From the NCBI GenBank assembly GCA_035593605.1, contig DAOSWS010000005.1, positions 52,834 to 116,833 of the forward strand: a stretch of DNA of 64,000 nucleotides. The letters are read 5' to 3'. How positions within the stretch are numbered: position 1 is the first letter of the stretch; each line of letters opens with the position of its first letter. Made by a program: the position numbers and the translations under genes. The notes below the pieces were generated by a model. The model had not been told where the DNA came from. It made no database searches and saw only the letters and a list, made by a program, of their open reading frames with translations. Below are positions 3,552-64,000 of the stretch, piece after piece. This DNA comes from Thermoanaerobaculia bacterium (GTDB taxonomy: Bacteria > Acidobacteriota > Thermoanaerobaculia > UBA2201 > DAOSWS01).

Positions 3552-3580
3552 ATACTGAAGGAGAAAATGCCTTACGGTTC

Positions 3581-8884: not shown

Positions 8885-8976
8885 GCAAAACCTCCTCTTT
8901 CAGGGAGTCGTCGACTCCTTCTGTTCAGGGTTATACGTTGAATAGGGGGCCGGGGTTCCGGCCACAGGATCGTCAA

Positions 8977-33521: not shown

Positions 33522-35039
33522 TCACATAAGCGTTGCCAGGCCAATTCCTAAGAGCAATCCCCCGAGAAAATAAAAGATCTCTTTCATGGGCAGGGTGCGA
33601 TCGCTGATCTGAAGATATTGCCAGAACTTTTGAAGCCTCGTATTCGATGGATCGATGGAAAAGGCCTGTCTCATCGTCGTGTTGGCCTTGGCCTTCATCC
33701 CGTTTTCCCAGTAAAGAGAAGCAAGATCCGCCATGATATCTGTGCTCAGCGGGTCGAGATCCAGGGCCCGGCGATAGGAAAGTTCAGCCTCTTTCTGCTT
33801 TCCAGGAATTCGGCGCAGGATCTGTCCCATTTTGAAAAGGTAGAATGAGTTACCCGGGTCATTGTCTACGGACATCTGGATGGCCGTCATAGCATCGGCC
33901 AGCTTCCGATCGCTCAACATCCGCAGGGCATACTGGTAATTGGTCGACGCGGTCTTCAGCTTGACCTGGGTGTCTGAAGGGCTGTCAGCGGGTTCCTTTG
34001 AAGATTCTTTGGGGCGGGGTGCTTCCTTTCGGGTAAGGATATTGTAAGCACGGGTCAGTTCGAGGAAGATGGCTTCCAGCTGATGGGTCAGGTCGGTCAA
34101 TGTTTCCTTAGAACTCTGATCGGGGTGGTAAATGGATAAGAGTGTCTCATACTGTCGCCGGATGTCTATGGGAGTAAAAGTGTCAGGAAGTTCAAGGAAC
34201 TCATTGGGTTCCTGAATACCGATGTGATGGAATTTTTCGACAACCATTTTCCGGGTCAGGGTGAATTCTTCTCCCTCAGCCTTCTGCGGGATCGACAGTG
34301 AATCCCGGGCGGGAGGCGTGCTGGATACTTCAAGGAGGCCGGCCATGACCAGGCCGAAAATCGTTTTCAATAGCTGGAAACGATCGATTTGAGGATTGGA
34401 TTCCAGAATCTGCTCGATTCGAGGGCCTTTATCGGCGTGGTGCAGGATTGTCTTTTCCAGACGATTGGTGCTGGCCTGCTGATAACGCAACCGGACATCC
34501 TGGCTCAGGTGGAGGAATTTCTGCGGGTTGTCGATAACTCGGTCGATGGCCAATGGAGAGTCGATGGCACGGGAAGCTGCAAGAATCAGGTCCGCAGTTG
34601 TTTTTGAAGGCAGAATCTTCCAGCTTACGACCTGTACTTCCGGTCGGAAAGTGACATCGACTTTACGGGATTTGAAAAGCTGGACGAGGGTCTGTTCGAG
34701 TTTTCGGTTCAGCTGGTCTATGATCATTTCCTGCTGAGCCAGGCCCATATCAACCAGGAGACTGCCGAGAGGCCTTCCTTTTGTCGTATCAACCGCTTCC
34801 TGGGCCAGCTCGACATCCCAGGGGCTGATCAGGCCGGATTTAATGATCAACTGGGAGAGGGATTCCTCCGAGTTGGACGAAGAAAGGGCCATAATTCTTC
34901 CTTTGTCCAGGATGAAATTGTACGTTGTATCATCATCTTTGACCTCCACCTGGCCGCTTCGTCCTTCAATGTGCAGCTTGGAGAGGATGAGAGGGAAATA
35001 GGGAGTCGAACTCTGTTCAAAGATTTTCATGGTACACAA
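33522..35039 (-). CDS. J-domain / TPR-repeat protein with DUF4388-like N-terminus and C-terminal TM helix
   Basis: HPD-containing J-like segment (…LLSIYHPDQSSKE…LTRAYNIL). TPR-like repeats near the C-terminus. Terminal hydrophobic helix. 505 aa. Confidence 0.5.
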   Translation of the reverse strand: MCTMKIFEQSSTPYFPLILSKLHIEGRSGQVEVKDDDTTYNFILDKGRIMALSSSNSEESLSQLIIKSGLISPWDVELAQEAVDTTKGRPLGSLLVDMGLAQQEMIIDQLNRKLEQTLVQLFKSRKVDVTFRPEVQVVSWKILPSKTTADLILAASRAIDSPLAIDRVIDNPQKFLHLSQDVRLRYQQASTNRLEKTILHHADKGPRIEQILESNPQIDRFQLLKTIFGLVMAGLLEVSSTPPARDSLSIPQKAEGEEFTLTRKMVVEKFHHIGIQEPNEFLELPDTFTPIDIRRQYETLLSIYHPDQSSKETLTDLTHQLEAIFLELTRAYNILTRKEAPRPKESSKEPADSPSDTQVKLKTASTNYQYALRMLSDRKLADAMTAIQMSVDNDPGNSFYLFKMGQILRRIPGKQKEAELSYRRALDLDPLSTDIMADLASLYWENGMKAKANTTMRQAFSIDPSNTRLQKFWQYLQISDRTLPMKEIFYFLGGLLLGIGLATLM

Positions 35040-38061: not shown

Positions 38062-41000
38062 TTAGTCGAAGAGAATAGTGGAAATGTCAAATTGCTTCAC
38101 GAAATCAGCAGCATCTCTGGCCGTCAGGGGACGTGAAATATGGTACCCCTGGGCATAGTTGCATCCCAGATCTTTTAGCGCACGGATCTGCTCGGCCATC
38201 TCGACGCCCTCTCCCATGACCTTCATATTCAGGTGATGGCCCAGCGAAATAATAGTAGATACGATTTCCGAACGGTCTTTGGGAGACTTCATCTTCATAA
38301 TGAAAGATCGATCAATTTTCAGAAAATCCAGAGGAAACTGATGCAGGTAACTCAAGGATGAATATCCAGTGCCAAAATCATCCACCAGGAGCTTGACTCC
38401 CAGTGCCTTCAGCTGAAACAGGGTGGATGTGACATCTTCTACCCGTTCCATGATCATACCTTCGGTGATCTCCAGGCCAAGAGAGTCGGGAGAAAGGTTG
38501 CATATGCGGAGGGTTTCACCGATGAATTCGGGAAGGTCAGGCTGGTAGAGAATGTGGTTGGAGAGGTTAACGGTGCAGGACAGATCTGCGCTTTCCTTCG
38601 TGAGGGATTTCCATTCCGAAAGTTGCCGGCATGTTTCTCCAATGACCCACCGATCAATCTCCGCCATATAGCCGGCATCGGTTGCGATCGTAAGGAAGTC
38701 ATCAGGTGTCATCAATCCCCGCTCCGGATGCTTCCATCGTATGAGGGCTTCAAAACCGTGAACTTTGGACAGATCCAGGTTAATAATCGGTTGGTAATGA
38801 AGGTTGAATTCCTTCCGGTTTAACGCGGATCGGAGCTCGTTCTCAAGCTTGAGGATGGATACGGCCCGGGCATGCATGCCGGCTTCAAAGATGGCGTAGG
38901 AGCCTCTGCCCAGAACTTTTGCCTTGTACATGGCTGATTCGGCATCCCGGAGATAGAGCTCCGGGCGGCTGTGAGCGATATGACTGAAGGAAATTCCGAT
39001 ACAGGCTGAGGTGTAGATTTCATGTTCGCCAATCGTGATGGGAGACTGGAAAGAGGTCAGGATCCGATCTGCCAGACGCGTAACCTCGGAAGGATCTTCA
39101 ACATCCTCGACCAGGATGGCGAACTCGTCTCCTCCGAGCCTTGCAACCGTGTCTCCGGGAAGGAGGCTGCCGCGGATTAATTCTCCGGTTCGTATCAACA
39201 GACGATCTCCGATGAGGTGCCCCAGGCTTTCGTTTATCACCTTGAATCGATCCAGATCGATGTGCAGAACAGCAAATGTGGTTTCTTCACTGCGACGGGT
39301 GCGCTCGATCGCCTGACCGAGACGGTCGGTGAAAAGTGCACGGTTGGGAAGAAGGGTCAGTGCATCGTGAAACGCGTCATGGAGAAGCTGCTCCTCTGCT
39401 CTCTTCCGATCGGTGATGTCGGTCTGGGACCCCGCCATTCGTATGGGACGGTTTTCCTCATCCCGCACGGCCATGCCCCTGGCAAGAACCCAGCGGTAGG
39501 TACCATCCCGATGGACGATTCGGAATTCTCTTTCAAAATGGGGCTCGAGGCCAGCCAGGTGAGCCTGAAAAGCACTTTCCACTTCCAGCCTGTCATCCTC
39601 ATGAATCCGTTCCAGCCATTCTCCAGGTTTGCTGCTTATCTCTTCCTCCGCAAATCCAAGCATCGATTTCCACCGGGGTGAATAATAAACCGTGTCATGC
39701 TTTAAATCCCAATCCCAGAGGCCGTCGTTGGCGCCTTTTGCAGCCAGTGCATAGCGGAGTTCACTTTCCTGAAGAGCCGTTTCAGATTTTTTCCGGTTTG
39801 AAGATTCTACCGCAAGGGAAACAAGGTCGGCCATCGATGCCGCGAAGAGTTCCTCATCAAATTCCCACGCTCTTCTTGGGCCAATATGTTCATGACAGAG
39901 GATCCCGATCACTTCTCCGCCGATACGGATCTGGGCATCGATCATGGAGGAAATGTGGTTTGGTTTCAGGTAGCCATTTGCAAATTCTCGCGTTCGGGGA
40001 TCGGTGAGCACGTCGTCGGTGGCTATCGTGCGGGATTCCCGGATCGATTTAAAATAGACCGGGAAATCCGCGACGGCGAGCTGGATACCGGAATCGTGAA
40101 AATCATCGCTTCGCGAATAGAGGTCAATACAGTCTAATTGTTTTCCGTCGCCCGAGAACATCCATACACTGACGCGCTCGACATCAAGGGTCTCTGCGGC
40201 TTTCCGGGTAACCTGACGGATGAAAGCAGGGAGATCGCCATGGGAAAGCTCGGCGCTTTTCGTCAGATCCAGCAGAACCCTGTTCTGGGTTCGAAGACGG
40301 TGATCACTGTCGCGAATAATGCTCTCCGCCCTTTTTCGATCCGTGATGTCGCGGCCGATTCCCTGTAAGGTTCCATCGGGTAGACGGACTGCGGAGATTT
40401 CCACGGGGAATTCCGTTCCATCTTTTCTTTTGAATGTCCGCTCAAGAAGGACCGCACGCTTTTCCCGTAAAGACGGTATCTGAAGGGGAAGGCGTTTCAG
40501 ATCTCGCTCTGGAATCAGTTCAGTGTACAATTTTCCGATTAATTCTTCCTTTGAATACCCTGTCATATTGCATGCAGCCTGGTTGACCTGGAGAATTCGG
40601 GCATCGTCACTGACAATGTAGATGGCATCGGAAGCCTGTTCGATGAGCGTCCGATAACGTACTTCACTTTCGATCACTGCACGCTGGGATTTGACGATCG
40701 ATGTAATATCTTCCACGGTTCCATCGTAGTACAGTACTTCTCCGGCGTCGTTCCGAACGACAGTCGAATTTTCCCTGACAAAGAGAGAGGAACCATCTTT
40801 CCTTTTCCACTCCGCCTCAAACCCCTGAATCGTTCCTGAAGCATGGATGACTTCCAGAAATTCTTTTCTGGTGCATGCATCTTTGTATCCCGATTCTCGG
40901 ACATCGATGGAAGAGAGGTCCTCAAACGATGAATAACCCAGCATGGAAACCAGCGCAGGATTCGCCATCAATACCTTTCCGTCAGGCGAAGTCCGATAGA

Positions 41001-43707
41001 TCCCGATGAGGGCGTTTTCATAGAGGCTTCGGAATCGTTCCTCCGATTCACGGATTCGTTCCTCCGAGAGCTTCTTTTCCGTAATGTCATCTTCGATCCC
41101 GATCATGTGCGTGATCGCGCCGTCATCATCTTTCAGAGGAGAAACGGTGAGGTGGACCCAGAATAGTTCACCGGTCTTTTTCCGATTCACAAGTTCTCCA
41201 GACCAGACGTCACCTGCTTTCACCGTTCTCCAAAGGTTCTCATGTACCTGCGGATCGTGATAGTCGGATTGAAGAATATCCGGTGTCTTCCCGATTGCCT
41301 CTTCTCGCGGCCAGCCGGTCACCTGGACGAAACGCTCGTTTACGTACTCGATCGCCCCTTCTGGATTGGTAATAATGATAATACTGCCACTTTGCTCCAC
41401 GGCACTGGAAAGCATGCGCAGTTGAGCCTGTGTCTTTCTTTCCCGGGTCGTATCTCGAATCGTTCCAAGGGTGGCAGGGGCGCCCATGTACTGGATTAAT
41501 CCTGCTGTGATGTGACAGTAAAGACGATGGCCCTCTTTGTGAATGAGGCGGATGTCATATTCAGAGGGAATGCTTTCCCCTGCCTGCCTTCGTGCATATC
41601 GGTCCAGCACCATCTCCTTGTCTTCGGGCGCGAGGATGTCTTCGTACGACACGGCCATAAACTCGGGGTGGGTGTAGCCCAGCATTTCGGCAAAGGCCTC
41701 GTTGGCGAAGATCATCTTTTGCCCCTGAAGGAGAAAAACGCCGTCGTGGATGTGCTCCACCAGAGTGCGGTAATGTTCTTCCGATTCCTTCAGCCTCTGT
41801 TCTGACCGCTTCTGATCCGTGATGTCTTTCAGGGTTCCCAGGCTGGCCACGCTGCCTTTGTAATTCAACAGACCGACGTGCATGAAAACATGGACGCGGG
41901 AACCATTCCGGTGGAGAAGCCTGAATTCGTATTCATCCGGAACGTCCTCTCCAGCCTGGCGTTTTGTGTACCGATCCACTACCCAGTCGTGGTCCTCCGG
42001 GGCGATGATGGAGTCGAAGGGGAGGGAAAGCAGGTCATTGGAACTCATTCCGACCATGCGGGCGAAAGCTTCGTTGACGTATTTGAAAATGTTGTCCTGG
42101 ATTAGAAAGACACCATCTTGGATGTTTTGAAGGAGAGTCCGGTAGTGTTCCTCCGATTCCCGAATTTTTTCTTCCGCCTGCTTCGACTCCGTGATATCAC
42201 GTACAATTCCGCAGATGGAGTGAACCCTGTCCCCTTCCATCTCCAGAGGGACCTGTACGGTATGAAAATAGTGGATTTTTCCACCAATGGTCAGTTCTCG
42301 AATTTCATCGACGATCTCTCCGCTGAAAGCCGCATTATCGACTTCCCGAATAATGGTGGCCGCTTCCGGAGGAAAGAGATCTTCAGGACACTTGCCCAGA
42401 AGCTCTCTCTGGGAGACTCCAAAGAGACGGGCCATGGAAGGATTGACAAAGGTGTACCTGCGGTCCATGTCCTTTATGAAGATGGAGTCTCGCGCGGTTT
42501 CGGTGATGGCTCTAAACCGCGCCTCGCTCTCTTTTACCTTCTTTTCGGCCCTGCGAAGTTCTTCAAGGTTTCTTACAAGAGCGACGGCAATGGGTTCATT
42601 TTTTCCCGTGCGCAGAACTTCTCCGATTCTCCGGAGGCGGACTTCCACGGGAAACTGCGTACCGTCGGCTCTTTTTGCCATCCATTCCACATCGACGGAT
42701 TCCCCGTCCAGGGCTCGTTTGACATATTGAAAGGCCTGCTCCTTTGTGCACCCGTCTCCCATGAACTGTTCGGGATCGTTCTGAAGGATTGCATCCTTAG
42801 AACATTGATACGCCTTCAGGACGTTGGCATTGACGTCGATCAGGCGTCCATCCGCTCCGTGGATAAAGATCATGTCGGGGGATGCATCGTAAATCGCCTG
42901 GAGAAAATCTCTCGCTTCCCTCAGGGATTCTTCCGCATGAACTCTCTCGGTCACATCCTCACCCGATGAGAGGGTGTGCGTGATGAACCCGTTCTCATCC
43001 CGGAGGTAGGTGTTGCGCCATTCGATCAGCCGCTCATCCCCCTTCCTGGTCCGGACCGGGTTGGCGTATTCAGTGAAGGCCTGGACCTGCCCGTGGATCA
43101 GGGATTCAAATACTCCCTTCAGCTCTCCCGCCATCCGGGAGGGAATAAAGGAGTCAAACCAGTTCTTTCCCACAATTTCAGAGACGGAATAGCCAAGAAT
43201 TTCAGCACCCTTCCTGTTGATATGGACAATTTGTGCCTGTGGATTCAGAATTAGAAGGATTACGTTTGCGACATCAAAATACTTCTGAGCCAGGTCGCGC
43301 TGGTGTTCCAGCTCCCGGATGACCGCGATCCTCTCGCTAATGTCTCGAAAAAGTCCCAGAACATGGGTCTTTCCCTCAATTACGAGATTTTTTGCGCTGA
43401 TTTCGACCGGGATGCGCTTTCCGCTGGAATGAACCACTTCCAGCGGCTCGGATATCGCTTTCCCTAAAGCCTTATGATCCTGGAAAATCTTTCTGTAGCG
43501 CTCCCGATCTTCGGGCGGGTGCAGTTCTGACTGATGCTTTCCCAGGATCTGGTCCCGGGGCAGTCCGAGCAGTTCCTCAGACCGGTGGTTGATTTCTACG
43601 ATCACGCCCCTGTCGTCGGCGATAAAAATGGCATCGTTCGCACTGTCCAGAAACGAACGTGCTTCCTCCGGCAGATGGAAGATTCCTGAATCAGACTCAG
43701 GGTCCAT
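38062..43707 (-). CDS. multi-PAS/GAF sensor diguanylate cyclase/phosphodiesterase (GGDEF-EAL)
   Basis: About 10 PAS/PAC units (recurring …NEAF…G(Y/W)…E(E/D)…G motifs) and a GAF. GGDEF (RLGGDEFAIL). C-terminal EAL domain (…QPI…EALIRW…, DDFGTGYSSL). 1881 aa. Confidence 0.85.
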   Translation of the reverse strand: MDPESDSGIFHLPEEARSFLDSANDAIFIADDRGVIVEINHRSEELLGLPRDQILGKHQSELHPPEDRERYRKIFQDHKALGKAISEPLEVVHSSGKRIPVEISAKNLVIEGKTHVLGLFRDISERIAVIRELEHQRDLAQKYFDVANVILLILNPQAQIVHINRKGAEILGYSVSEIVGKNWFDSFIPSRMAGELKGVFESLIHGQVQAFTEYANPVRTRKGDERLIEWRNTYLRDENGFITHTLSSGEDVTERVHAEESLREARDFLQAIYDASPDMIFIHGADGRLIDVNANVLKAYQCSKDAILQNDPEQFMGDGCTKEQAFQYVKRALDGESVDVEWMAKRADGTQFPVEVRLRRIGEVLRTGKNEPIAVALVRNLEELRRAEKKVKESEARFRAITETARDSIFIKDMDRRYTFVNPSMARLFGVSQRELLGKCPEDLFPPEAATIIREVDNAAFSGEIVDEIRELTIGGKIHYFHTVQVPLEMEGDRVHSICGIVRDITESKQAEEKIRESEEHYRTLLQNIQDGVFLIQDNIFKYVNEAFARMVGMSSNDLLSLPFDSIIAPEDHDWVVDRYTKRQAGEDVPDEYEFRLLHRNGSRVHVFMHVGLLNYKGSVASLGTLKDITDQKRSEQRLKESEEHYRTLVEHIHDGVFLLQGQKMIFANEAFAEMLGYTHPEFMAVSYEDILAPEDKEMVLDRYARRQAGESIPSEYDIRLIHKEGHRLYCHITAGLIQYMGAPATLGTIRDTTRERKTQAQLRMLSSAVEQSGSIIIITNPEGAIEYVNERFVQVTGWPREEAIGKTPDILQSDYHDPQVHENLWRTVKAGDVWSGELVNRKKTGELFWVHLTVSPLKDDDGAITHMIGIEDDITEKKLSEERIRESEERFRSLYENALIGIYRTSPDGKVLMANPALVSMLGYSSFEDLSSIDVRESGYKDACTRKEFLEVIHASGTIQGFEAEWKRKDGSSLFVRENSTVVRNDAGEVLYYDGTVEDITSIVKSQRAVIESEVRYRTLIEQASDAIYIVSDDARILQVNQAACNMTGYSKEELIGKLYTELIPERDLKRLPLQIPSLREKRAVLLERTFKRKDGTEFPVEISAVRLPDGTLQGIGRDITDRKRAESIIRDSDHRLRTQNRVLLDLTKSAELSHGDLPAFIRQVTRKAAETLDVERVSVWMFSGDGKQLDCIDLYSRSDDFHDSGIQLAVADFPVYFKSIRESRTIATDDVLTDPRTREFANGYLKPNHISSMIDAQIRIGGEVIGILCHEHIGPRRAWEFDEELFAASMADLVSLAVESSNRKKSETALQESELRYALAAKGANDGLWDWDLKHDTVYYSPRWKSMLGFAEEEISSKPGEWLERIHEDDRLEVESAFQAHLAGLEPHFEREFRIVHRDGTYRWVLARGMAVRDEENRPIRMAGSQTDITDRKRAEEQLLHDAFHDALTLLPNRALFTDRLGQAIERTRRSEETTFAVLHIDLDRFKVINESLGHLIGDRLLIRTGELIRGSLLPGDTVARLGGDEFAILVEDVEDPSEVTRLADRILTSFQSPITIGEHEIYTSACIGISFSHIAHSRPELYLRDAESAMYKAKVLGRGSYAIFEAGMHARAVSILKLENELRSALNRKEFNLHYQPIINLDLSKVHGFEALIRWKHPERGLMTPDDFLTIATDAGYMAEIDRWVIGETCRQLSEWKSLTKESADLSCTVNLSNHILYQPDLPEFIGETLRICNLSPDSLGLEITEGMIMERVEDVTSTLFQLKALGVKLLVDDFGTGYSSLSYLHQFPLDFLKIDRSFIMKMKSPKDRSEIVSTIISLGHHLNMKVMGEGVEMAEQIRALKDLGCNYAQGYHISRPLTARDAADFVKQFDISTILFD

Positions 43708-52845: not shown

Positions 52846-55800
52846 TCAATTACAGGTAAAGGTGACCTGTATTTTCCAGGTTCCCCCGTCGTTGTACTTG
52901 TTGAGATAGATCGTGCAGTTCCCGACGAGCTCGTAGAAAACCAGCGGCCGTCCGTTGTCGGTCAGAACAGTAGGATCCGGGTCGACGTAGGGTGAGGTGA
53001 TATCGGCGGCGTAAAAGTCGTCGTCATCTTCGGAGCCGTTGGCTTCCATCATCGAGCCTTCCCCTTCGTCGGCAACCATGTTCGCCCCGGAGGGATCAAG
53101 GGCCGGGTCAGCAGGATGGGTCTGCACAAAGATCGCGTTCAAGGCTGTGGAGAGGGGATTCGTAGAAGCAATCTCGTCATTCCGGAGAAGGTCGGGAATC
53201 GGGATCGGTCCCGAATCGGGATCTAGGTAGTCGGGAATCCCGTCGTTATCCTGGTCGTCATCACTCCAGTCTCCATTCCCGTTGGTGTCCTCCTCCGAGG
53301 TGTCATAGCCGTCCCCGTCGTCATCCACATCCTGAAAGTCGGGTTTCCCGTCCGTGTCGGTGTCCTGAAGGGTCGCCGGGGTCGTCTCGTAGGAGTCATC
53401 CAGGCCGTTTCCGTTTGTGTCGGTAATCGTGTCGATCTGACCGTCGCCATTCGAGTCCACGACCGTCGTATTGTCGTTCACGCCGTCATGATCCGCGTCG
53501 TTCCCCTCGATCAGGTCTTCCACCCCGTCTCCGTCGGCATCAAGGTCCTGAAAGTCCGGGCTGCCGTCCCCGTCGGTGTCGACGGGCTTGGTTCCCAGAT
53601 CACTGTCTCCCGCTTCGTCCGCGTCGGGGATCCCGTCGTTGTCACAGTCCAGGTCGAGGTAGTTGGGTACTCCATCCCCGTCGAAGTCTCCGAAGGATTC
53701 GTCCTCGTCGGAGATCGTGTCCCCGTCGGAGTCCAGGTCCAGGTAGTTGGGAATTCCATCCCCGTCCGGGTCGCCCAGGCCTTCCTGACCGTCCGAGATT
53801 CCATCATCGTCGCTATCGGGGTCCCTGAAGTCGGGGATCCCGTCTCCGTCGGTGTCCACCGGGGGTGTGTCCGGGTTCCCGTCGCCCCCTTCCACGGAAT
53901 CGGGGATCCCGTCGTTGTCCGAGTCAAGGTCCAGGTAGTCGGGAATCCCATCGCCATCCGTGTCCCCCGCACCCTCATCGCTGTCGTAAATCCCGTCCCC
54001 GTCACTGTCCAGGTCCTGGTCGTTGGGGATCCCGTCTCCGTCCTGGTCATCCAGCGGGGCCGAATTCTCCGTCACGTCAGGAATCCCATCGTTGTCACTG
54101 TCCGTAAGGGCGTCGGGATCCAGAAAGTCGGGCTGTGTATCCCCGTCGCCGTCTCCCGTCCCTTCAATCCGATCAGGAATCCCGTCGTCATCGGAGTCCG
54201 GATCCAGGTAGTTGGGAATTCCATCACTATCCGTGTCGTCCCCGATCGGGCTCGTGTCTCCCCCGAAGCGGTCGTATTCGTTTGCGGTGGGGATCCCGTC
54301 GTTGTCATCGTCAGTGTCAAGGAAATCGGGATTGCCATCATTGTCGCTGTCCTGCAGTGCCGCCGGTGTCGTCTCATAGGTGTCATCCAGGCCGTTGCCG
54401 TTCGCATCGGTGATCGTGTCGATTCGGCCGTCGTTGTCGGCATCGGTCACGCCGGTGTTGTCATTGGCGCCATCCTGGTCGGCATCGTTCCCTTCGATCA
54501 GGTCCCACACGCCGTCGCCATCACTGTCCAGGTCGAGGTAGTTGGGAATTCCGTCTCCATCAAAATCTCCCGCTCCCTCCGCTGCATCCGGAATCCCGTC
54601 GTTGTCACTGTCAAGATCGAGATAGTCCGCGACGCCGTCCCCGTCACTGTCCCCCGATCCTTCTGTTACGTCAGAGATCCCGTCCCCGTCGCTGTCCGTT
54701 GGTACGTCGGGATCCAGAAAGTCCGGCGATCCGTCTGTGTCGGAGTCCGCCGTACCCTCAATCTGGTCCGGAAGTCCATCCGCGTCGGAGTCCAGGTCCA
54801 GGTAGTTGGGTATGCCATCCCCATCGTAATCATCGGTCCCGGTTCCGCTGTCTTCCACGCTGTCCGGAATCCCGTCGCCGTCGGAGTCGGGATCCAGGAA
54901 ATTGGGAATCCCGTCCCCGTCGATATCCCCGGTGCCTTCGATACTGTCGGGAATGCCGTCCCCGTCGGAGTCGTCATCGATGTAGTTCCCCAGCCCGTCT
55001 CCGCCATCCGCTGTGTCCCCTGTATGTTCCGTAGCGTCGGGGATGCCGTCGCTATCGGAGTCGAGGTCGAGGTAATTGGGGTTCCCGTTGGAGTTCGTGT
55101 CATCATCTGTGGGATCGCCGTTCCCGTTGGCGTCTTCGTCCGCCGTGGGGATGCTGTCCCCGTCATCGTCCGGATCGAGATAGTCAGGGAGGGTATCGCC
55201 GTCGAAGTTCTGCGTAACGGCCGGCGTGCCTCCTTCGCTGGGGTCGTAGTGGTCGTCCCACCCGTCTCCGTCTGCGTCGGTGATTGTGTCGATCCTGCCG
55301 TCATTGTCCGCGTCGGTAACTGCATAGTCGGTAACACCGTCAAAGTTTGCATCATTGCCTTCGATAAGGTCCCACACTCCGTCGCCGTCCGAGTCCAGGT
55401 CGAGGTAGTTCGGAATTCCGTCCCCGTCGGCATCTCCCGTTCCTTCCACTGCGTCCGCAATCCCATCGTTGTCCGCATCCAGATCTGGAGTGTCGGCAAT
55501 TCCGTCCCCGTCGGTGTCAGGTTCCAGTACGAAGTCATCCATGGCGGCCGCGTCCGGATCCGTTGGGGAATAAAGGGGCGGGATCGGTGCCCCGGTGGGA
55601 TAGATCACTGCGTGCCAGGTTCCTTCCGAGCCCAGGCTCGAACCGTCGACGCTCGTCGACAGCTCACCTGATCCGTTGGTGATCACGGTCTGGGTGAGTA
55701 CGAGGGTTCCGTCTTCATCGTAGTACACCACCGTATACGACGTTGTGGGCAGGAGGGGACTTCCGTAAAGATAGATCGTATCGGCCAGCGTAAAGTAATC

Positions 55801-58509
55801 TTCAGGGTCGGTCCAGGAGGCATCGGCGTAGGAAGCCAGGGCCGTGCCCACCGGGATGGGGAAGGTGGCCGTGGCGATCGTGTTGTCGCAGGACCCCAGC
55901 CAGTAGACCTGAATCGTGTAGATTCCCTCTACCGGGAAGGATACGTTGTTGACCGAGACTGTCTCCGTGGCCGAATCGCCCGCTGCAATCGTGTGGGGCA
56001 GGGTGATCCTTGTGAACAGGGCCGAATCATAGGAGGAAAAGGTCCCGGAGGAAGTAAGGTATTGTGTGCCATCCGGGTTGATGACCCGGTAGCGGTATGT
56101 GGTGTCGTAATAGACGGCTCCCGTGGATGTGTTATTGAATGTAGCCGTCACGGTGAGGTTGTTGCCCGTCAGGCTGTACGAGGCCCGGTTCGTCGTGATC
56201 GGACCGATTGTCGACGGTGTGGCGGCAGGGTCAAGGGTGATGAGAATCGTGTCAAGAAGCGTGCCGGACTGGTAGAGTCGAACCGTCCAGGTACCCAGCG
56301 TGTCTGTCGAGGTGAAGGTGTACTCGTCCAGGGCGTCCCCGCTTCCGTCCGTCGGTACCGTGTGGGACTGGATCGCCGTACTCGAAGAGGGGGGGAAGAT
56401 GTCGATCCGGTATGTGGTCGTCGTCGACAGGGTCAGCGATGCCCCCTGCAGGTATACCGTGTCACACCGGGCAAAGAAGGTCTGGGAGATCGTGCGGTTA
56501 GGATCAGCATACGCGGCAATGTAGCTGACCGTGAGCTGGTCCGTGACTGCCGCCGTGGCTCCAGTGCCCGACGTCGCCGTCACTGTGGTCGAGTTCTGCA
56601 CGGGATAACTGGTCGGGGCCAGATCGGGAACGATGATCTCCACCACAAGGTCCATTTCCCCACCATACGCAGGAAGGGAAAACGTACCTGTAATCTGGTT
56701 TCCATCGGACGGGTTTCCGTCCCCGTCCGGATCGGTGTAATACCGGACCGTCCATCCCTGCGTCGAGGTCTGGCTCAGCGTGATCGTTTCGGATGTAATC
56801 CAGGAATTGATCAGCGTGTGGGCAAAGAAGACCGAACGGCTGTCCCCGCTGAACTTGTTTGTGTTATTTGAAAAGAGGTAGGAAGGGGTCAAGGTCAGAC
56901 GGCTCCGGATCGTTGTCGTGAGCTGAGCGTCATCCGACGTGCCGTAAATGTCGCCTACGGCTGTAACGGAGGTTACATCCACGTCGTTCAGAGTTCCTGA
57001 ATAGACCCGTACACGGAAGGTTACCGGTGTGCCGTTGAAGACCGTCCCGAAATCGGGATAGCCGTTACTGTTCGTGTCATATCCGCTCTGGATCGATTCA
57101 AAGCTCCCGTCCCCGTTTGTGTCCTCCGCGACAAGGGCCCCGCCTCCGGTGTAGATCTGCAGGCGGTAGCCGAGAGACGAAAGGACGTACAGATCAAAAA
57201 CGTCGTCCAGACCGTTATTGGTCAGCGTCAATGTGTACTCGGCATATTGCCCCACGGCGGCTGCCCCTGTCTGGAGTGACGGCTGGAGTGTAACCTGGCC
57301 AATTCCTGTGATGTCGGTGACTGAATCGTACGAGTCCAGAGGCTCGGTCAGCGAAATTGCGGTAAGGATCGTTGTGTCGATCACGTCCGTGATCCCGGCC
57401 GCGGCCGTCAGTTCCAGGCGCAGGGAAAAGGTGTTTCCGGGAGAGGCCGTTGTCAGAATCGGCGTGTCGGGGCGTGTGTCCCCCGTTCCGGAATCGCTGT
57501 TATACACAGGGTTGACGTAGTCCCAGTCCCCGTCTCCATCGGTGTCCGAGGCCATCAGGGTGTTCGTGCCGTCATCGTAAAGATCGGCCGGAAGAGCCAG
57601 GCTGGAGGAAATCTCAAAGTTGTACTCGTCGTCCAGCGTGCCTGTGTTTTTGCAGGTATGGTAATAGGTAATCGTTGCGGGATTCCCCGGCGCCACCGTC
57701 TGGGATTCGTTGTCATAAAGATCCACCAGGTAAAAGGCGAAGGAGCCGATCCCTCCGTCTGGACCGCCGAGGTTGTCGTCAATCTGCGCCGGAACCGTGC
57801 CTCCGTTGGAATTGTTGCTGGAGGAAACGTGAAAGTAGACCGGCGTCCCGGCGGGGACCCCCAGGTTTGTCCAGGGAAGGCGGCATTCGAAGCCGCGGCC
57901 GTCGGCAAAGCCGCCGATTGTGTTGGTATAGATCGTGACAGGAGGATAGGGCGCCTTGGTGTAGAGTGTTCCCGGCAGTGTATAACCGTCAGCGTACCCG
58001 GAGGCATCCACGAGGCTGTCCCCGTTGGTGTCATCCACGGCGTTATAGGTGAAGAGGTACGCTTCCGTGTTCCGGTTGGAACCATTAAGGACAACCTGAA
58101 AGACCTTTTCCCCGTCGTTCATACGCTTGTTCCGGCTGGTATCGCAGTAAAAATAGTAGGTCTGCGTGTTGGTAGAACTTCCGTACCGGGATACGTACAT
58201 GTAGATATTGGAGCCGTCATATGTCCAGGCAAAACGGTTCAGGTCCCGTCCCGAAATGTTTGTATTATTCGTGCAGTCCCGGTCCAGGGGCGGAACGTTG
58301 CACTGTGGAGAAAACTCTCCGTCGTTCGTCACCTGGAGCGGATTGGAAAGGATCGGAGCCCAGTCCGTTGCCACGCCATCCACGGTGATCGTCTTCAGGG
58401 TCGGTCCGGCCGCAAAGAGTGACAGCGCGGTGAGAATCATCAGAAGTACAAAAACCGAACATCGATACAAAAATGCGCCTGCCAGTACATGTGATTTCAT
58501 AAAATTCAT
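52846..58509 (-). CDS. giant secreted calcium-binding repeat protein (thrombospondin type-3-like Asp-rich repeats) with conserved C-terminal tail
   Basis: Signal peptide. About 950-aa beta-rich N-terminal region. Then dozens of D-x-D-x-DG-(I/V)-x-D/DLDSDGDGIPD repeats of TSP3/OmpA-associated type. C-terminal …PLVFYEL…KIQVTFTCN. 1887 aa. Confidence 0.7.
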   Translation of the reverse strand: MNFMKSHVLAGAFLYRCSVFVLLMILTALSLFAAGPTLKTITVDGVATDWAPILSNPLQVTNDGEFSPQCNVPPLDRDCTNNTNISGRDLNRFAWTYDGSNIYMYVSRYGSSTNTQTYYFYCDTSRNKRMNDGEKVFQVVLNGSNRNTEAYLFTYNAVDDTNGDSLVDASGYADGYTLPGTLYTKAPYPPVTIYTNTIGGFADGRGFECRLPWTNLGVPAGTPVYFHVSSSNNSNGGTVPAQIDDNLGGPDGGIGSFAFYLVDLYDNESQTVAPGNPATITYYHTCKNTGTLDDEYNFEISSSLALPADLYDDGTNTLMASDTDGDGDWDYVNPVYNSDSGTGDTRPDTPILTTASPGNTFSLRLELTAAAGITDVIDTTILTAISLTEPLDSYDSVTDITGIGQVTLQPSLQTGAAAVGQYAEYTLTLTNNGLDDVFDLYVLSSLGYRLQIYTGGGALVAEDTNGDGSFESIQSGYDTNSNGYPDFGTVFNGTPVTFRVRVYSGTLNDVDVTSVTAVGDIYGTSDDAQLTTTIRSRLTLTPSYLFSNNTNKFSGDSRSVFFAHTLINSWITSETITLSQTSTQGWTVRYYTDPDGDGNPSDGNQITGTFSLPAYGGEMDLVVEIIVPDLAPTSYPVQNSTTVTATSGTGATAAVTDQLTVSYIAAYADPNRTISQTFFARCDTVYLQGASLTLSTTTTYRIDIFPPSSSTAIQSHTVPTDGSGDALDEYTFTSTDTLGTWTVRLYQSGTLLDTILITLDPAATPSTIGPITTNRASYSLTGNNLTVTATFNNTSTGAVYYDTTYRYRVINPDGTQYLTSSGTFSSYDSALFTRITLPHTIAAGDSATETVSVNNVSFPVEGIYTIQVYWLGSCDNTIATATFPIPVGTALASYADASWTDPEDYFTLADTIYLYGSPLLPTTSYTVVYYDEDGTLVLTQTVITNGSGELSTSVDGSSLGSEGTWHAVIYPTGAPIPPLYSPTDPDAAAMDDFVLEPDTDGDGIADTPDLDADNDGIADAVEGTGDADGDGIPNYLDLDSDGDGVWDLIEGNDANFDGVTDYAVTDADNDGRIDTITDADGDGWDDHYDPSEGGTPAVTQNFDGDTLPDYLDPDDDGDSIPTADEDANGNGDPTDDDTNSNGNPNYLDLDSDSDGIPDATEHTGDTADGGDGLGNYIDDDSDGDGIPDSIEGTGDIDGDGIPNFLDPDSDGDGIPDSVEDSGTGTDDYDGDGIPNYLDLDSDADGLPDQIEGTADSDTDGSPDFLDPDVPTDSDGDGISDVTEGSGDSDGDGVADYLDLDSDNDGIPDAAEGAGDFDGDGIPNYLDLDSDGDGVWDLIEGNDADQDGANDNTGVTDADNDGRIDTITDANGNGLDDTYETTPAALQDSDNDGNPDFLDTDDDNDGIPTANEYDRFGGDTSPIGDDTDSDGIPNYLDPDSDDDGIPDRIEGTGDGDGDTQPDFLDPDALTDSDNDGIPDVTENSAPLDDQDGDGIPNDQDLDSDGDGIYDSDEGAGDTDGDGIPDYLDLDSDNDGIPDSVEGGDGNPDTPPVDTDGDGIPDFRDPDSDDDGISDGQEGLGDPDGDGIPNYLDLDSDGDTISDEDESFGDFDGDGVPNYLDLDCDNDGIPDADEAGDSDLGTKPVDTDGDGSPDFQDLDADGDGVEDLIEGNDADHDGVNDNTTVVDSNGDGQIDTITDTNGNGLDDSYETTPATLQDTDTDGKPDFQDVDDDGDGYDTSEEDTNGNGDWSDDDQDNDGIPDYLDPDSGPIPIPDLLRNDEIASTNPLSTALNAIFVQTHPADPALDPSGANMVADEGEGSMMEANGSEDDDDFYAADITSPYVDPDPTVLTDNGRPLVFYELVGNCTIYLNKYNDGGTWKIQVTFTCN

Positions 58510-58850: not shown

Positions 58851-58881
58851 TTAAAAAAAACGCCCCGGCAAAGCCGGGGCG
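58851..58881 (-). terminator. rho-independent terminator of the 58905-64000 gene
   Basis: GCCCCGGCTTTGCCGGGGC hairpin on the minus strand followed by T8 (A8 at 58853-58860 on +). Lies 20 nt 3' of the TGA stop. Confidence 0.85.
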
Positions 58882-58904
58882 CTGAAGTTCTGCGGGAGAA
58901 AAGA

Positions 58905-61900
58905 TCAGTTGTAGGTAATGACGACCTTTCCGCCGGATTTGGTGACCATGACCGTATCCAGACCCTTGGTCAGTTCATAGAAGATCAACGGCTCAGCGCC
59001 CGGGTCAAGGTCATTGGTTTCATTGGGAAATGGATCGTTGGATAGGAATTGGGCCTTTTCCAGGTCACGCCCGGGGTTAAGACCGGGGTCGCCGGGGTAG
59101 GGCCGGAAGTTGAAGATCTCGGCGAAGGTTAATGTGGCTGCATCGTCGTTACGCAGGAGCCAGACGTCATCGACCCGAACCGTCTTGGTATCTGACGTGA
59201 CACATCCGTGAACGTCCGTGAACGTATAGGTAATGACGAATGTACCAACTCCCGCCAGAGTTGGACTGAATGTACCCAGTGAGCCATTGGTGATCCCGGT
59301 TCCAGACCAGATTCCTGACGCGGGAGAAGCGCCGCTCAGGTTGAAGGGATCGGCACCGAGCCACGTAATCTCATCGGCTCCCGCTTCGGTCGTGGTGTAG
59401 TACCACTGGCCGGTTGACGCCAGGGGATCCATATTGAAACAGGCCCCCGAAGCCGTGCCGCGGTCGGTGACCAAACAGTTGTAGGTGTGGGTTTCCGCGC
59501 CGCTGTGGGTTACGGAAAGAACGGTGTTGACCGACATGAAGATATCGGATATGTCCGCAACTCCACCGCCACCACATCCGCTCAGTTCAAAGATGTAGAG
59601 CTTGTAGTTCCCGGGACCGTGTGCCGGATCGTTGTAGAAAAGGGTGATGTCATAGGGTGCGGCTGAAGGAACGCCATAATCCTTCAGGACGATTCGATCC
59701 AGGTTTGGGGCTTCCAGTTCAATCCGCACACAGTTAAGAAGGTCGGTGGTTCCGCCAAGGATGTAGTAGACCCTGGCGATGTCGGCAGGCGGTGCGATGG
59801 TAAAACCGTTCAGGGTAAAGGCCTGTCCACCCGAGAGATCGTTATCCACGATGCCTGCCTGACCGGCTCTCCATGCTGCTTCTCCAGCTTCTCCGGGCAT
59901 GTCTGAGCCGTCTTCCTGCCACTGGGTGGTGTAAATTCCCGTCCCGCCCGTGGCGCGGACGATGAAGTCCAGGTACTCATCATAGCAGGTGGATGTCGTG
60001 GCGTTGGGTGTGACGTCAACTGAGACGCCCGTCACAACGGTAACGCTGGTGGTTTCGCTGTCGGAACATCCGTATCCGTCTTCCACGGTCAGGAGGTACG
60101 TTCCGCTGTTGGCTGTCGAAGCTCCGACGATCGTTGGATTCCTGTCAAAGGAGTCGAATCCGTTGGGACCGGTCCAGTGGTAGGAAACCATTCCGTCCGG
60201 GCCGCCGAATAGTTCGATGGTTTCACCTTCGCAGTAGGCGCCCGTGTTTGTAGCTGTGGCTACCGGGTCGGAGACTCGCACGTTCTTTGTGTCAGCGTTG
60301 AAGCAGGTACCGTCGAAGATCGTGTAGGTGAGGGTGTGAATCCCGGCTCCAGCCACGGCAGGGTTAAAGGTACCCAGGCCGGGGTTTGTGATTCCCGTAC
60401 CGCTCCAGACTCCGCCCGCAGGAGAAAAGCCGGTCATGTTGTAGGGCGGAGTGTTAATGCAGACATTATCATTGGAGCCTGCATCGACGGCCGGAAGCGC
60501 ATTGACGATAACGGTGGTTGATGTGCTGGCAATGCAGCCGTTGCTGTCTGTTACCGTCAGAGAGTAAGAACCGGCCTGTGCCAGGGTGATTCCCACGATC
60601 TGGGGGCTCTGTTGTGAACTCGTGTATCCATTAGGTCCTACCCAGCTGTATATGGACATACCCGCGGGGCCGCCAGTAAGCTGGAGGATTCCTCCTTCAC
60701 AAACCGGACCGTTATTGGAGGCGGTCACGGCCGGTGGAGCATTAACTGTTACCGTTGTCTGGGCCTGATCGGTGCAGCCTGCAGCATTGGTCACGGTCAG
60801 CGTGTAGACGCCATTATGAGAGGAAGTCGTTACGAGAATGGTTGGGCTCTGGAGTGAACTCGTGTATCCATTCGGTCCTGTCCAGCTGTAGGAGCTCATA
60901 CCGGCGGGACCGCCGATGAGTTGAACCGGAAATCCCTCGCAGACCGGGCCTGTGTTGGAAGCCGTGGCTGTGGGAGATGCATTAACCGTAACGGAGGTCG
61001 TCGTCTGATCGGTACAGCCATTGGCATCGGTTACTGTGAGCGTGTAGACACCCGCAGCCGCGGATGTGGCATCGGCAATGGTCGGGCTCTGGAGAGATGA
61101 CGTGAAGCCATTCGGTCCTGTCCAGGCATAGGAAGCCATGCTGTCGGGTTCACCGGTCAGGTCGATCGTATCACCTTCACAGTACGGTCCGCCGTTGGAG
61201 GCGGCAGCTGTTGGAGGTGTATTGACCACGACGGTCGTCGTATCCTGTCCGGTACATCCTCCGGAATTGGTTGCGGTCAGCGTGTAGTCTCCACCCATCG
61301 CCGCTGTTGCGGCCGGGATTGAAGGATTCTGTTCACTGGATGTAAATCCGTTCGGGCCGGTCCATGCGTAGGATGCCATGCTGTCCGGTGAACCGTTCAG
61401 CTGAATCGTGTCCCCCTCACAGTAGGGTCCGGTGTTCGAAGCTGTAGCCGTGACGCCAATATCGACAGTTACCGAAGTTGTTGCGTCATCGGTGCATCCA
61501 TCGGCATTCGTTACGGTAAGAGTATATACACCGGCCATTGCGGTTGTCGAAGAGAGAATCGAAGGACTCTGTTCACTGGAGGTATACCCGTTGGGACCTG
61601 TCCATGCGTAAGAGGACATCCCATCCGGACCGCCCGTGAGCTCGATGGTCTGGCCTTCGCAGTAGGGGCCGCCGTTGGAGGCCGAAGCCACCGGTGCGGT
61701 ATTCACCACCACCGTGGTTGTGTCCTGATTCGTGCATCCATCACCATCGGTGACGGTCAGCGTGTAGTCACCCGCCATGGCGACCGTTGCGGAGAGAATG
61801 GAAGGACTCTGTTCGCTGGATGTGTACCCGTTCGGACCCGTCCATGCATAGGTTGTCATGCCGTCGGGAGCACCGGTCAGCTGGATCGTGTCTCCTTCGC

Positions 61901-64000
61901 AGTAGGGACCGCCGTTCGTGGCCGTGGCTGTCGGCTGTGTCCATTCACCGGTGTTGCTGGTCAGGTCGGACGTGGCGCAGCCGGAGGTGGTGCCCAGGTC
62001 GCTGATGAGGCAGTTGTAAGCGTGACTCTGGGGCGTGGAGTAGGTGAGGGTCAGCTTGTGGTTGACCCCCATGAAGATATCGGAAATGTCCGCAGAACCG
62101 GTGTCGCATCCGGAAAGTTCCAGGACAATCAGATTGTAGTCGCCGGGGCCGTACGTATTGTAAAACCCCGTGATATCGAAGGGGGAAGCTGCGGCAACGC
62201 CGTAGTCTTTCACCACCAGACGGTCAAGCGTGGGGGCTTCCAGCTCGATCCGGACACAGTTCAGCAGGTCGGTGGTCCCGCCCAGTGTGTAGTAAAGTTC
62301 GGCAAGATCCGCAGGGGAAGCAATCGTGAAACCGTTCAGGGCAAAGGACGCACCGGCGGGATCGTTGTCGATCAAACCGGTAGCTCCCGTGTTCCAGGCG
62401 GCTTCACCCGTCTTGCCCGCCAGATCACCGCCATCTTCCTGCCACTGGAGACCGTAGATTCCCGATCCGCCGGAGGCAAAGACGTTGAAGGTGATGTTTT
62501 CATCGACGCAGGCCGAAGACGTGCCGTCGGGCGTGGCATCGACGGTCATCACCGTGTAGACAGATACCGTGGTTGTCTCAGCGTCAGAGCAGCCGTTGGC
62601 ATCGGTTACCGTCAGTGTGTAGACTCCTGCCTCTGCAGTGGTAGCGGATGCAATCGCGGGGCTCTGTTCCGAAGAGGTGAATCCGTTGGGGCCTGTCCAG
62701 GCATAGGTGGTCATTCCGTCGGGTCCGCCCGTCAGCTGGATCGTTTCCCCTTCGCAGTAGGGACCGCCATTGGAGGCCGTGGCCACCGGGGCTGCGTTCA
62801 CGACGACATCCGTCGTGTCCTGGCCGGTACAGCCGTTGGTGTCCGTGACCGTCAATGTGTAGGTGCCGGCTGCAGCCAGTGTCGCTGCCAGCGTTGGACT
62901 CTGCTGGTCGGAGGTGAATCCGTCCGGTCCGGTCCAGGCATAGATCGCCATGCTGTCCGGGGCGCCGGTGAGCTGGATCGTGTCACCCTCACAGTAGGGT
63001 CCGCCGTTGGAGGCCGCAGCCACCGGGGGCGTATTGACGACAACATCCGTCGTATCCTGACCCGTGCAGCCGCTTCCGTCCGTAATCGTCAGGGTATAGG
63101 TGCCTGCAGCCGCCAGGGTCGCGGGAACGGTTGGATTCTGTAATGCTGACGAGAATCCATCCGGTCCGGTCCAGGCATAGATCGCCATGCCGTCGGGAGC
63201 GCCGGTCAGCTGGATCGTGTCTCCCACGCAGTAGGGCCCGCCGTTGGTGGCCGTAGCTACCGGAGCCGCGTTCACGACAACGGTAGTCGTGTCCTGATTC
63301 GTGCATCCATCACCATCGGTGACGGTCAGCGTGTAGTCACCCGCCATGGCGACCGTTGCGGAGAGAATGGAAGGACTCTGTTCGCTGGATGTGTACCCGT
63401 TCGGACCCGTCCATGCATAGGTTGTCATGCCGTCGGGAGCACCGGTCAGCTGGATCGTGTCTCCTTCGCAGTAGGGACCGCCGTTCGTGGCCGTGGCTGT
63501 CGGCTGTGTCCATTCACCGGTGTTGCTGGTCAGGTCGGACGTGGCGCAGCCGGAGGTGGTGCCCAGGTCGCTGATGAGGCAGTTGTAAGCGTGACTCTGG
63601 GGCGTGGAGTAGGTGAGGGTCAGCTTGTGGTTGACCCCCATGAAGATATCGGAAATGTCCGCAGAACCGGTGTCGCATCCGGAAAGTTCCAGGACAATCA
63701 GATTGTAGTCGCCGGGGCCGTACGTATTGTAAAACCCCGTGATATCGAAGGGGGAAGCTGCGGCAACGCCGTAGTCTTTCACCACCAGACGGTCAAGCGT
63801 GGGGGCTTCCAGCTCGATCCGGACACAGTTCAGCAGGTCGGTGGTCCCGCCCAGTGTGTAGTAAAGTTCGGCAAGATCCGCAGGGGAAGCAATCGTGAAA
63901 CCGTTCAGGGCAAAGGACGCACCGGCGGGATCGTTGTCGATCAAACCGGTAGCTCCCGTGTTCCAGGCGGCTTCACCCGTCTTGCCCGCCAGATCACCGC
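58905..64000 (-). CDS. giant repeat-containing surface protein (SprB-like about 80-aa Ig-like repeats with Cys pair), 5' end beyond window
   Basis: At least 11 repeats of …NGGPYCEGDTIQLTG.PDGM..YAWTGPNG(F/Y)TS….P.I……AG.YTLTVTD.(N/D)GC…TTV.V… Three copies of a separate 150-aa module. C-terminal tail homologous to the neighbouring giant protein. The ORF is still open at the window edge. Confidence 0.7.
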   Translation of the reverse strand, partial: GDLAGKTGEAAWNTGATGLIDNDPAGASFALNGFTIASPADLAELYYTLGGTTDLLNCVRIELEAPTLDRLVVKDYGVAAASPFDITGFYNTYGPGDYNLIVLELSGCDTGSADISDIFMGVNHKLTLTYSTPQSHAYNCLISDLGTTSGCATSDLTSNTGEWTQPTATATNGGPYCEGDTIQLTGAPDGMTTYAWTGPNGYTSSEQSPSILSATVAMAGDYTLTVTDGDGCTNQDTTTVVVNAAPVATATNGGPYCVGDTIQLTGAPDGMAIYAWTGPDGFSSALQNPTVPATLAAAGTYTLTITDGSGCTGQDTTDVVVNTPPVAAASNGGPYCEGDTIQLTGAPDSMAIYAWTGPDGFTSDQQSPTLAATLAAAGTYTLTVTDTNGCTGQDTTDVVVNAAPVATASNGGPYCEGETIQLTGGPDGMTTYAWTGPNGFTSSEQSPAIASATTAEAGVYTLTVTDANGCSDAETTTVSVYTVMTVDATPDGTSSACVDENITFNVFASGGSGIYGLQWQEDGGDLAGKTGEAAWNTGATGLIDNDPAGASFALNGFTIASPADLAELYYTLGGTTDLLNCVRIELEAPTLDRLVVKDYGVAAASPFDITGFYNTYGPGDYNLIVLELSGCDTGSADISDIFMGVNHKLTLTYSTPQSHAYNCLISDLGTTSGCATSDLTSNTGEWTQPTATATNGGPYCEGDTIQLTGAPDGMTTYAWTGPNGYTSSEQSPSILSATVAMAGDYTLTVTDGDGCTNQDTTTVVVNTAPVASASNGGPYCEGQTIELTGGPDGMSSYAWTGPNGYTSSEQSPSILSSTTAMAGVYTLTVTNADGCTDDATTSVTVDIGVTATASNTGPYCEGDTIQLNGSPDSMASYAWTGPNGFTSSEQNPSIPAATAAMGGDYTLTATNSGGCTGQDTTTVVVNTPPTAAASNGGPYCEGDTIDLTGEPDSMASYAWTGPNGFTSSLQSPTIADATSAAAGVYTLTVTDANGCTDQTTTSVTVNASPTATASNTGPVCEGFPVQLIGGPAGMSSYSWTGPNGYTSSLQSPTILVTTSSHNGVYTLTVTNAAGCTDQAQTTVTVNAPPAVTASNNGPVCEGGILQLTGGPAGMSIYSWVGPNGYTSSQQSPQIVGITLAQAGSYSLTVTDSNGCIASTSTTVIVNALPAVDAGSNDNVCINTPPYNMTGFSPAGGVWSGTGITNPGLGTFNPAVAGAGIHTLTYTIFDGTCFNADTKNVRVSDPVATATNTGAYCEGETIELFGGPDGMVSYHWTGPNGFDSFDRNPTIVGASTANSGTYLLTVEDGYGCSDSETTSVTVVTGVSVDVTPNATTSTCYDEYLDFIVRATGGTGIYTTQWQEDGSDMPGEAGEAAWRAGQAGIVDNDLSGGQAFTLNGFTIAPPADIARVYYILGGTTDLLNCVRIELEAPNLDRIVLKDYGVPSAAPYDITLFYNDPAHGPGNYKLYIFELSGCGGGGVADISDIFMSVNTVLSVTHSGAETHTYNCLVTDRGTASGACFNMDPLASTGQWYYTTTEAGADEITWLGADPFNLSGASPASGIWSGTGITNGSLGTFSPTLAGVGTFVITYTFTDVHGCVTSDTKTVRVDDVWLLRNDDAATLTFAEIFNFRPYPGDPGLNPGRDLEKAQFLSNDPFPNETNDLDPGAEPLIFYELTKGLDTVMVTKSGGKVVITYN
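61720..62431. repeat. exact intragenic direct repeat copy 1 (partner 63289-64000, period 1569 bp)
   Basis: 61722-62431 is nucleotide-identical to 63291-64000 as far as the window allows. Identity is confirmed by the identical 72-aa frame-artifact ORFs 61787-62005 and 63356-63574. Sequence upstream of the left boundary differs. Confidence 0.85.
63289..64000. repeat. exact intragenic direct repeat copy 2 (truncated by window edge)
   Basis: See copy 1. Confidence 0.85.

Follow-up and report, generated by a model that had tools for sequence, protein, structure and literature searches.

What kind of protein is encoded by a giant, repeat-built gene of an uncultured bacterium when its records in three public assemblies label the product "hypothetical protein"? 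This question is raised by a stretch of 64,000 nucleotides (nt), referred to below as the window, from a metagenome-assembled genome (MAG) of the Acidobacteriota (Thermoanaerobaculia; assembly GCA_035593605.1, contig DAOSWS010000005.1, positions 52,834 to 116,833), in which the C-terminal part of such a gene occupies positions 58905..64000 of the minus strand. The initial annotation described its product as a giant surface protein composed of SprB-like repeats and a thrice-repeated module of 150 amino acids (aa). On its sequence, we place the protein in a small Acidobacteriota family that combines a head and a tail with variable middles; in the target, the middle is a stalk of immunoglobulin (Ig)-like domains, three of which appear to carry a nested jelly-roll. 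The architecture suggests a surface fibril or an adhesin that bears lateral knobs for binding, a function to which we give a probability of roughly 60%.

The minus-strand frame runs without interruption over 1697 codons, from the window edge at 64000 to the stop codon at 58905-58907, and a "TTG start" listed at 63944 merely reflects this edge. The whole gene, the retrieval of which had been proposed as a check, was found by looking up the neighbouring gene on public contigs (ENA, JGI and NCBI; about 150 kb each). It comprises 9471 nt and encodes 3156 aa (contig L001, positions 135-9605), and 1459 N-terminal codons lie beyond the window edge, as the missing N-terminus had led one to expect; window residue n therefore becomes full-length residue n+1459, and the latter numbering is used below unless stated otherwise. 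The N-terminus resembles a signal peptide (MITLLNRKSVSIVIFSLLLLISGISLAQ; read by eye, not from a predictor); as a giant, repeat-built and, by this N-terminus, Sec-exported protein of the surface type, it agrees with the earlier description of a giant surface protein. The 3156-aa protein is present in three Thermoanaerobaculia MAGs (HPR63143.1, HXK67442.1 and HUM29002.1), and JGI and ENA contigs from different samples again give 3156 aa with the same architecture. Since the gene is intact in all these sources, the fragmentation on re-assembly that would have spoken against a single giant protein was not observed. Behind the signal peptide come a head that measures about 1000 aa, a stalk in which 21 small repeat domains follow one another, and a C-terminal tail of about 87 aa.

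The nested module was found by profile three times in the window, at 63621-63992, 62052-62429 and 59517-59906, each time with E of about 1e-35. Copy 1, a P-domain-like jelly-roll, is encoded at 63621..63998 on the minus strand (residues 1460-1585; profile E 2e-35), and the N-terminal half of its host domain falls outside the window. Copies 2 and 3 lie together with their Ig_3-type hosts at 61935..62555 (residues 1941-2147; module proper 62052-62429) and 59412..60032 (residues 2782-2988; module proper 59517-59906), both on the minus strand. No Pfam or NCBIfam family covers these copies of about 125 aa, the isolated module has no Pfam match at E<=1, and Pfam at E<=0.1 places no family over the module in its relatives. 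A profile search of the PDB sequences gave nothing under E 0.2, and a word-indexed search of 5.8 billion proteins returned zero matches. The module is indeed, as was noted at the start, unlike the repeats, and by these searches it lies outside the catalogued families. Literature searches found nothing specific to the module or to the protein family. An exhaustive HMMER search of 1.84 billion representative proteins retrieved 52 non-self relatives at E<=1e-3, of which 16 reach E<=1e-10; they have in common a core of about 100 aa (F-PAFT...A-LSY-L-G-TDLVNCV-V-L--P-G---LK-YG-----PYDVT-FY---GPGTY-L-L-E--GCG...M-V).

Structure prediction, which had also been suggested as a check, was informative: with a 40-sequence alignment, AlphaFold gave a confident all-beta sandwich (predicted local distance difference test, pLDDT, 89.2; predicted template-modelling score, pTM, 0.82). 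When the model was compared with the PDB by Foldseek, the best 27 matches came exclusively from furin, Kex2 and Aeromonas ASP, at E of 3e-5 to 1.5e-3. Since these proteases have an alpha/beta catalytic domain and the module is all-beta, we infer that the match lies in their P-domain. The same module searched against the viral folds of BFVD gave generic jelly-roll matches only. We conclude that the module represents a sequence family that is new and that, by its predicted structure, has the fold of a P-domain-like jelly-roll. Both the module and the P-domain (PF01483) are jelly-roll beta-sandwiches of about 125-130 aa. They differ in that the module has no significant sequence match to the P-domain and is not attached to a subtilase (S8) catalytic domain (Pfam detected no peptidase domain in residues 1-1022, 1406-1622 and 1460-3156), and in its setting, since it is nested in an Ig domain here and follows a CARDB-like domain elsewhere.

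The nesting is best seen by comparison with P0045, a protein with fn3 domains and a protease-like region, which holds three uninterrupted Ig_3 domains and, further along, one module; Pfam Ig_3 matches two stretches of it (best residues 649-716, E 4.7e-13). The unspliced target segment matched P0045 by BLAST in separate places, with E of 1e-7 for the N-terminal flank, 2e-13 for the module and 3e-5 for the C-terminal flank. After deletion of the module, the joined flanks aligned over their whole length with all three Ig_3 domains of P0045 (E 2e-16, 3e-16 and 6e-15; 36-40% identity over 94-96 residues). On this alignment, the segments "QWQEDG-D--G" and "...L-V-THS---HTYNCL-TD" can be taken as two halves that make up a single Ig_3 domain. 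All three domains of this type in the stalk thus appear to be split after "YxWQxDG..G" by a nested jelly-roll, which is about 125 aa long. In the part of the gene inside the window, a QWQEDG...GEAAW segment does precede each module, as reported initially; both elements are real, but they are not separate, and together they would form one Ig_3 domain with its insert rather than a segment followed by a module of 150 aa.

A direct Pfam scan of the spliced host gave no match. Aligned with the 80-aa repeats of the stalk by hhalign, the host corresponds to them in the last strands only (E 0.12), and it is therefore of a different Ig type from these repeats. Its N-terminal flank also matches 13 uninterrupted repeats of another protein, P0065, and in P0040, an unrelated metagenomic protein, the same module is nested twice, behind the "YEW" of an Ig-like repeat. 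P0045 falls into one cluster, at 90% identity, with P0091 (HPR62637.1; PK014_00310 is its locus tag), and PK014 is the prefix of the target's own MAG. The parts that this same-genome protein still keeps separate could thus have been joined to give the composite domain. P0045 and its relatives L004-L006 are similar to the target in lineage and in the possession of both building blocks, separately; they differ from it by a trypsin-like N-terminal region (Pfam Trypsin_2 in L004 and L005) and fn3 domains, by the location of the module after a CARDB-like domain instead of inside an Ig domain, and by the absence of the head-tail frame.

Among the relatives in general, the position of the module is varied and often C-terminal; it frequently stands behind a CARDB-like domain (CGDGD-VEPGE-W), in some cases with a shorter second copy after it. 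Its partners include a trypsin-like protease with fn3 (L004, L005), BNR repeats (P0044) and PKD (P0038, P0050), and in the protease-bearing relatives fn3 and Ig domains separate the trypsin-like protease from the module. Binding is the usual role of such jelly-rolls, and this distribution fits a portable extracellular domain. A scan of 185,579 species-representative genomes yielded three relatives of the module, all from Acidobacteriota or Thermoanaerobaculia MAGs; it was made with a 7-sequence alignment and a single narrow peptide pattern, and therefore says little about more distant relatives.

Three unannotated proteins of Acidobacteriota MAGs that carry the module are encoded on the plus strand of L006 (2815-8310), L005 (1301-5779) and L004 (2066-6696), in the order trypsin-like region (in L006 by eye), fn3, Ig, CARDB-like domain, module and further repeats. 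The L004 gene seems to be split into two overlapping open reading frames (ORFs) of 792 aa, possibly by a frameshift. P0047, a metagenomic protein of 1914 aa, has the module on the N-terminal side of a Baseplate_J-like domain, which a Hint/intein either interrupts or follows; judged from this domain content, the module would also be used in a phage-tail-like or contractile-injection-type protein.

The head and the tail between which the stalk is held are what relates the target to its family. For the head (about 1000-1020 aa) there is no convincing Pfam match and no PDB match, and its relatives give weak MG2-like matches only. The head has 26 homologues (lowest E 3.7e-185). The majority of those inspected measure about 1060 aa and consist of head and tail, and others have Big_13 or TSP3-like inserts between the two. 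The tail of about 87 aa (LLRNDD...PLIFYEL...KVVITYN), encoded at 58908..59168 on the minus strand, is defined by an alignment (A4) and a profile with E of 2e-29 in the target and 5e-24 in the neighbouring paralogue, to which it is common. The family consensus of the tail is LLRN...IF...DP-L-P...DL-P---P(L/I)(I/V)FYEL---TLR--K-GGKIVITY, the invariant positions of A4 are L-L-R, F, L and Y, and LLR...(I/V)FY(E/Q)(L/V)...(I/V)(T/S)(Y/F) served as the motif for membership. Pfam gave no match at E<=1 in the last 401 aa, and A4 has no NCBIfam match; the tail looks family-restricted.

The neighbouring paralogue, on the downstream side of the target (1887 aa, 52846..58509, minus strand), has the same head and tail (BLASTP 32% identity over 1054 aa, E 5e-104), and its middle consists of about 800 aa of Asp-rich TSP3-like repeats of the calcium-binding type, with a Pfam TSP_3 match. 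A third paralogue, P0001 (1064 aa), also has the locus-tag prefix PK014, by which we assign it to the same MAG. In this family, it seems, different stalks are exchanged while head and tail stay constant.

In the target, the stalk combines 15 two-cysteine PKD/Ig-like repeats, three repeats of a second kind and the three Ig_3-type domains, and all 21 domains are either shown to be beta-sandwiches or read as such. The two-cysteine units of about 80 aa follow the pattern C-EGDTIQLTG...Y-WTGPNG...AG-YTLTVTD-NGC; where "at least 11" had been reported, there are exactly 11 in the window. Aligned, these 11 have a mean column identity of 73% and two invariant cysteines, which may form the disulfide suggested initially. 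The window part of the protein matches the Pfam families Ig_2 (6.7e-38), K319L-like PKD (3.3e-33), PKD_4 (4.4e-31), Ig_7 (1.4e-26) and PKD (PF00801; 2.8e-21), and a single isolated repeat reaches 25.0 bits for Pfam PKD against a cut-off of 23.5, with other families slightly under their cut-offs. The alignment and the Pfam matches bear out the Ig-like nature that had been ascribed to the units, which Pfam assigns to the generic PKD/Ig superfamily. Four of them are encoded at 62553..63506 (residues 1624-1941), six at 60498..61937 (residues 2147-2626) and one at 60030..60269 (residues 2703-2782), all on the minus strand. The repeats of the second kind (GG-WSG-GI...G-F-P...AG-G), three in the gene and two in the window, may be read as Ig-like, and their Pfam matches are marginal only. 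Those in the window were read from the sequence of the same strand at 60267..60488 (GGVWSGTGI...GTFNP...AG-G-H-LTY; no significant Pfam match) and at 59169..59390 (GIWSGTGI...; Pfam marginal).

The way in which this stalk has grown can be followed at the nucleotide level. Positions 61720-62431 of the window recur exactly at 63289-64000, where the window ends (712 nt, 100% identity), and the first of these arms (61720..62431, a direct repeat without assigned strand) lies within a tandem duplication of 1569 nt. When the whole gene is considered, nt 3561-5100 and 5130-6669 have an identity of 96.9% over 1540 nt; of their 48 mismatches, only five lie outside the first 514 nt or so, and there are none across about 1 kb. 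The duplicated unit (1569 nt, 523 aa) consists of four repeats and one module-bearing domain. Its tandem duplication is recent, or else the two units have been homogenised, and it shows directly that the stalk grows by tandem segmental duplication of this unit. Module copies 1 and 2 are identical because the unit has been duplicated, and copy 3 is 65% identical to them. Thus the count of three modules made initially is supported by the profile, but copies 1 and 2 represent one duplication and are not independent. The three MAG versions of the protein vary at two residues only, 1413 and 1936 (T/A; residue 1936 corresponds to window 62568-62570), which are matching positions of the two duplicated units, and this suggests either repeat-copy ambiguity or gene conversion.

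How far can the assembled repeat structure be trusted, and does the protein belong to a known secretion-dependent class? One possibility is that the repeat structure, notably the second identical module, is an artefact of assembly and that the gene in fact contains another number of 1569-nt units. This view draws on the exact identity of about 1 kb of both units, which is beyond a short-read or insert span, on the MAG variation at equivalent residues only, a pattern expected of repeat-copy ambiguity, and on the comparison of L001 with L002, which differ in 11 nucleotides, every one inside the repeat region. We nevertheless consider an artefact quite unlikely, for the length of 3156 aa was obtained from the three MAG assemblies and from the JGI and ENA contigs of different samples, the reading frame is preserved throughout the duplicated region, and the two units have 43 differences in their first 514 nt or so, and therefore at least two distinct units must exist. 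Very improbable, in our opinion, is the placement among the gliding or adhesin proteins of the SprB/CHU_C kind that are secreted by the type IX secretion system (T9SS) in the Fibrobacteres-Chlorobi-Bacteroidetes (FCB) superphylum, to which the initial annotation had likened the protein. Its attraction comes from the 80-aa repeats, since the matched Ig_7 family is named "Ig-like domain CHU_C associated", and from P0065, where repeats of the host type occur in a protein whose C-terminus reads (by eye) like a gliding-motility C-terminal domain. The target shares with the Bacteroidota SprB/CHU_C-associated adhesins the arrays of PKD/Ig units of about 80 aa with their "Y-W-GPNG...G-Y-L-V-D-NGC" pattern, the N-terminal signal peptide and the very large size. 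However, the Pfam scan of the repeats that had been proposed to settle the matter recovered the PKD and Ig families and neither SprB (PF13573, a 37-aa repeat; no match at E<=0.01 in the 1697-aa window part) nor CHU_C. T9SS cargo ends in a sorting domain of type A (TIGR04183) or type B (CHU_C); here the TIGR04183 signal of 22.5 bits is under the cut-off of 23 and internal (window residues 974-994, inside an Ig repeat), whereas the true C-terminus, a stretch of 87 aa, is matched by neither Pfam nor NCBIfam. In the roughly 90 kb of the MAG that were covered (the window and L001-L003), we saw no T9SS genes. With its Acidobacteriota (Thermoanaerobaculia) origin and a family-specific head and tail that are absent from the Bacteroidota adhesins, the protein can be called neither SprB-like nor an FCB-type gliding protein.

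Another design, that of the repeat-extender adhesins MpIBP, LapA and SiiE, follows the same logic as the target: an Ig-like extender rod bears a few ligand-binding modules and grows by tandem duplication. These proteins are substrates of the type I secretion system, with RTX C-termini and no Sec signal peptide, and their ligand-binding modules are arranged in series, while those of the target are nested in Ig domains. The repeats of the target would form an extended rod from which the three nested jelly-rolls may protrude sideways as binding knobs for a glycan or protein ligand, and the head and the tail, conserved across the family, may supply the distal function and an attachment or export signal. 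It is also conceivable that the protein is a structural component of the envelope (S-layer, sheath or matrix scaffold), in which the modules act as spacers or oligomerisation knobs and have no external ligand. Such a component is favoured by the conservation of head and tail around middles that are interchangeable (Big_13, TSP3-like, Ig) and by the paralogues, of which two stand in tandem and at least one other, P0001, belongs to the same MAG; the structural role which the P-domain has in kexin-type proteases would suit it too. We regard it as unlikely because the module recurs at varied positions in very different proteins, including the Baseplate_J and trypsin-like protease proteins, and a portable binding domain fits this recurrence better than a structural spacer does.

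Several observations weigh against the reading as a fibril or adhesin with lateral knobs and lower the confidence that we place in it. Surface location and adhesion are deduced from the architecture of the protein, and each named relative is annotated just as "hypothetical protein". A single-sequence AlphaFold model of host and module together had a pLDDT of 38.6 and was unusable. The jelly-roll is a generic fold, and the query-normalised TM-scores of the module to furin are only 0.47-0.62. The hhalign comparison of the module alignment (A2) with the furin P-domain, for which a furin sequence in agreement with the PDB was used, was not significant (E 0.041, probability 1.3%); its register nevertheless agrees with what the fold match predicts, in that "v.V.L.aP.gt..LK" is paired with "laihlvspmgtrstll", and "GpGtY.i.L.E" is paired with "sgewvleien". 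Homology of the module to PF01483 is hence plausible but not established. The tail profile search returned just 10 short fragments, and therefore the tail is unlike a widely used sorting tag. Finally, the exact repeat of about 1 kb exceeds what short reads can span, and the copy number of the 523-aa unit is for this reason not fully secure.

A bolder proposal goes beyond the adhesin itself. The nested jelly-roll may found a new ligand-binding (for example, glycan-binding) family that is centred on Acidobacteriota surface proteins and distantly derived from the P-domain, and at the same time the head-plus-tail frame, with its unrelated inserted stalks (Ig/PKD, TSP3-like, Big_13), may be an unrecognised display system of the cell surface in which the 87-aa tail is a new anchoring or export signal. 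As a whole, this combination is possible but doubtful. More directly, the locus provides a concrete architecture for the largest surface proteins of the Thermoanaerobaculia, which are known here from MAGs alone, and the module is a rare uncatalogued domain family with a confident fold that could enter Pfam or InterPro. It also gives a clean case of a domain nested in an Ig domain, the parts of which are still separate in the same genome, and illustrates the growth of a stalk by a recent duplication of 1.57 kb. Surface proteins of giant size that combine Ig repeats with accessory jelly-roll modules are already familiar; current ideas are not overturned, and an uncatalogued family with a neat nesting would not surprise a specialist.

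The two giant genes form a tandem pair, which is bordered on one side by genes for MutL, pyruvate phosphate dikinase, GlyQS and RecO and on the other side by a divergently transcribed gene for an SLT/SBP protein. A terminator-like hairpin at 58859..58883 on the minus strand, 22 nt past the stop codon, has an 11-bp stem with 9 G-C pairs followed by a T run (consensus scan only), and the two giant genes are probably transcribed separately. Genes of the diguanylate-cyclase type are present on both sides of the pair; this arrangement of cyclic di-GMP genes is circumstantial and compatible with biofilm-linked regulation. On one side, window 38062-43707 (minus strand) encodes a protein of 1881 aa with about ten PAS domains together with GAF, GGDEF and EAL. 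On the other side, L003 has two genes for Y_Y_Y-GGDEF proteins (1-2356 and 3374-6535).

Opposite the giant genes there are ORFs of 373 aa (62022-63143, plus strand) and 727 aa (53488-55671, plus strand) that nothing supports; we take them for probable shadow ORFs in coding sequence that is repetitive and G+C-rich. Scans of the window for tRNA genes and Rfam families were empty. At 33522-35039 on the minus strand, the window also encodes a protein of 505 aa in which DUF4388, a DnaJ domain and TPR repeats are joined in an unusual combination.

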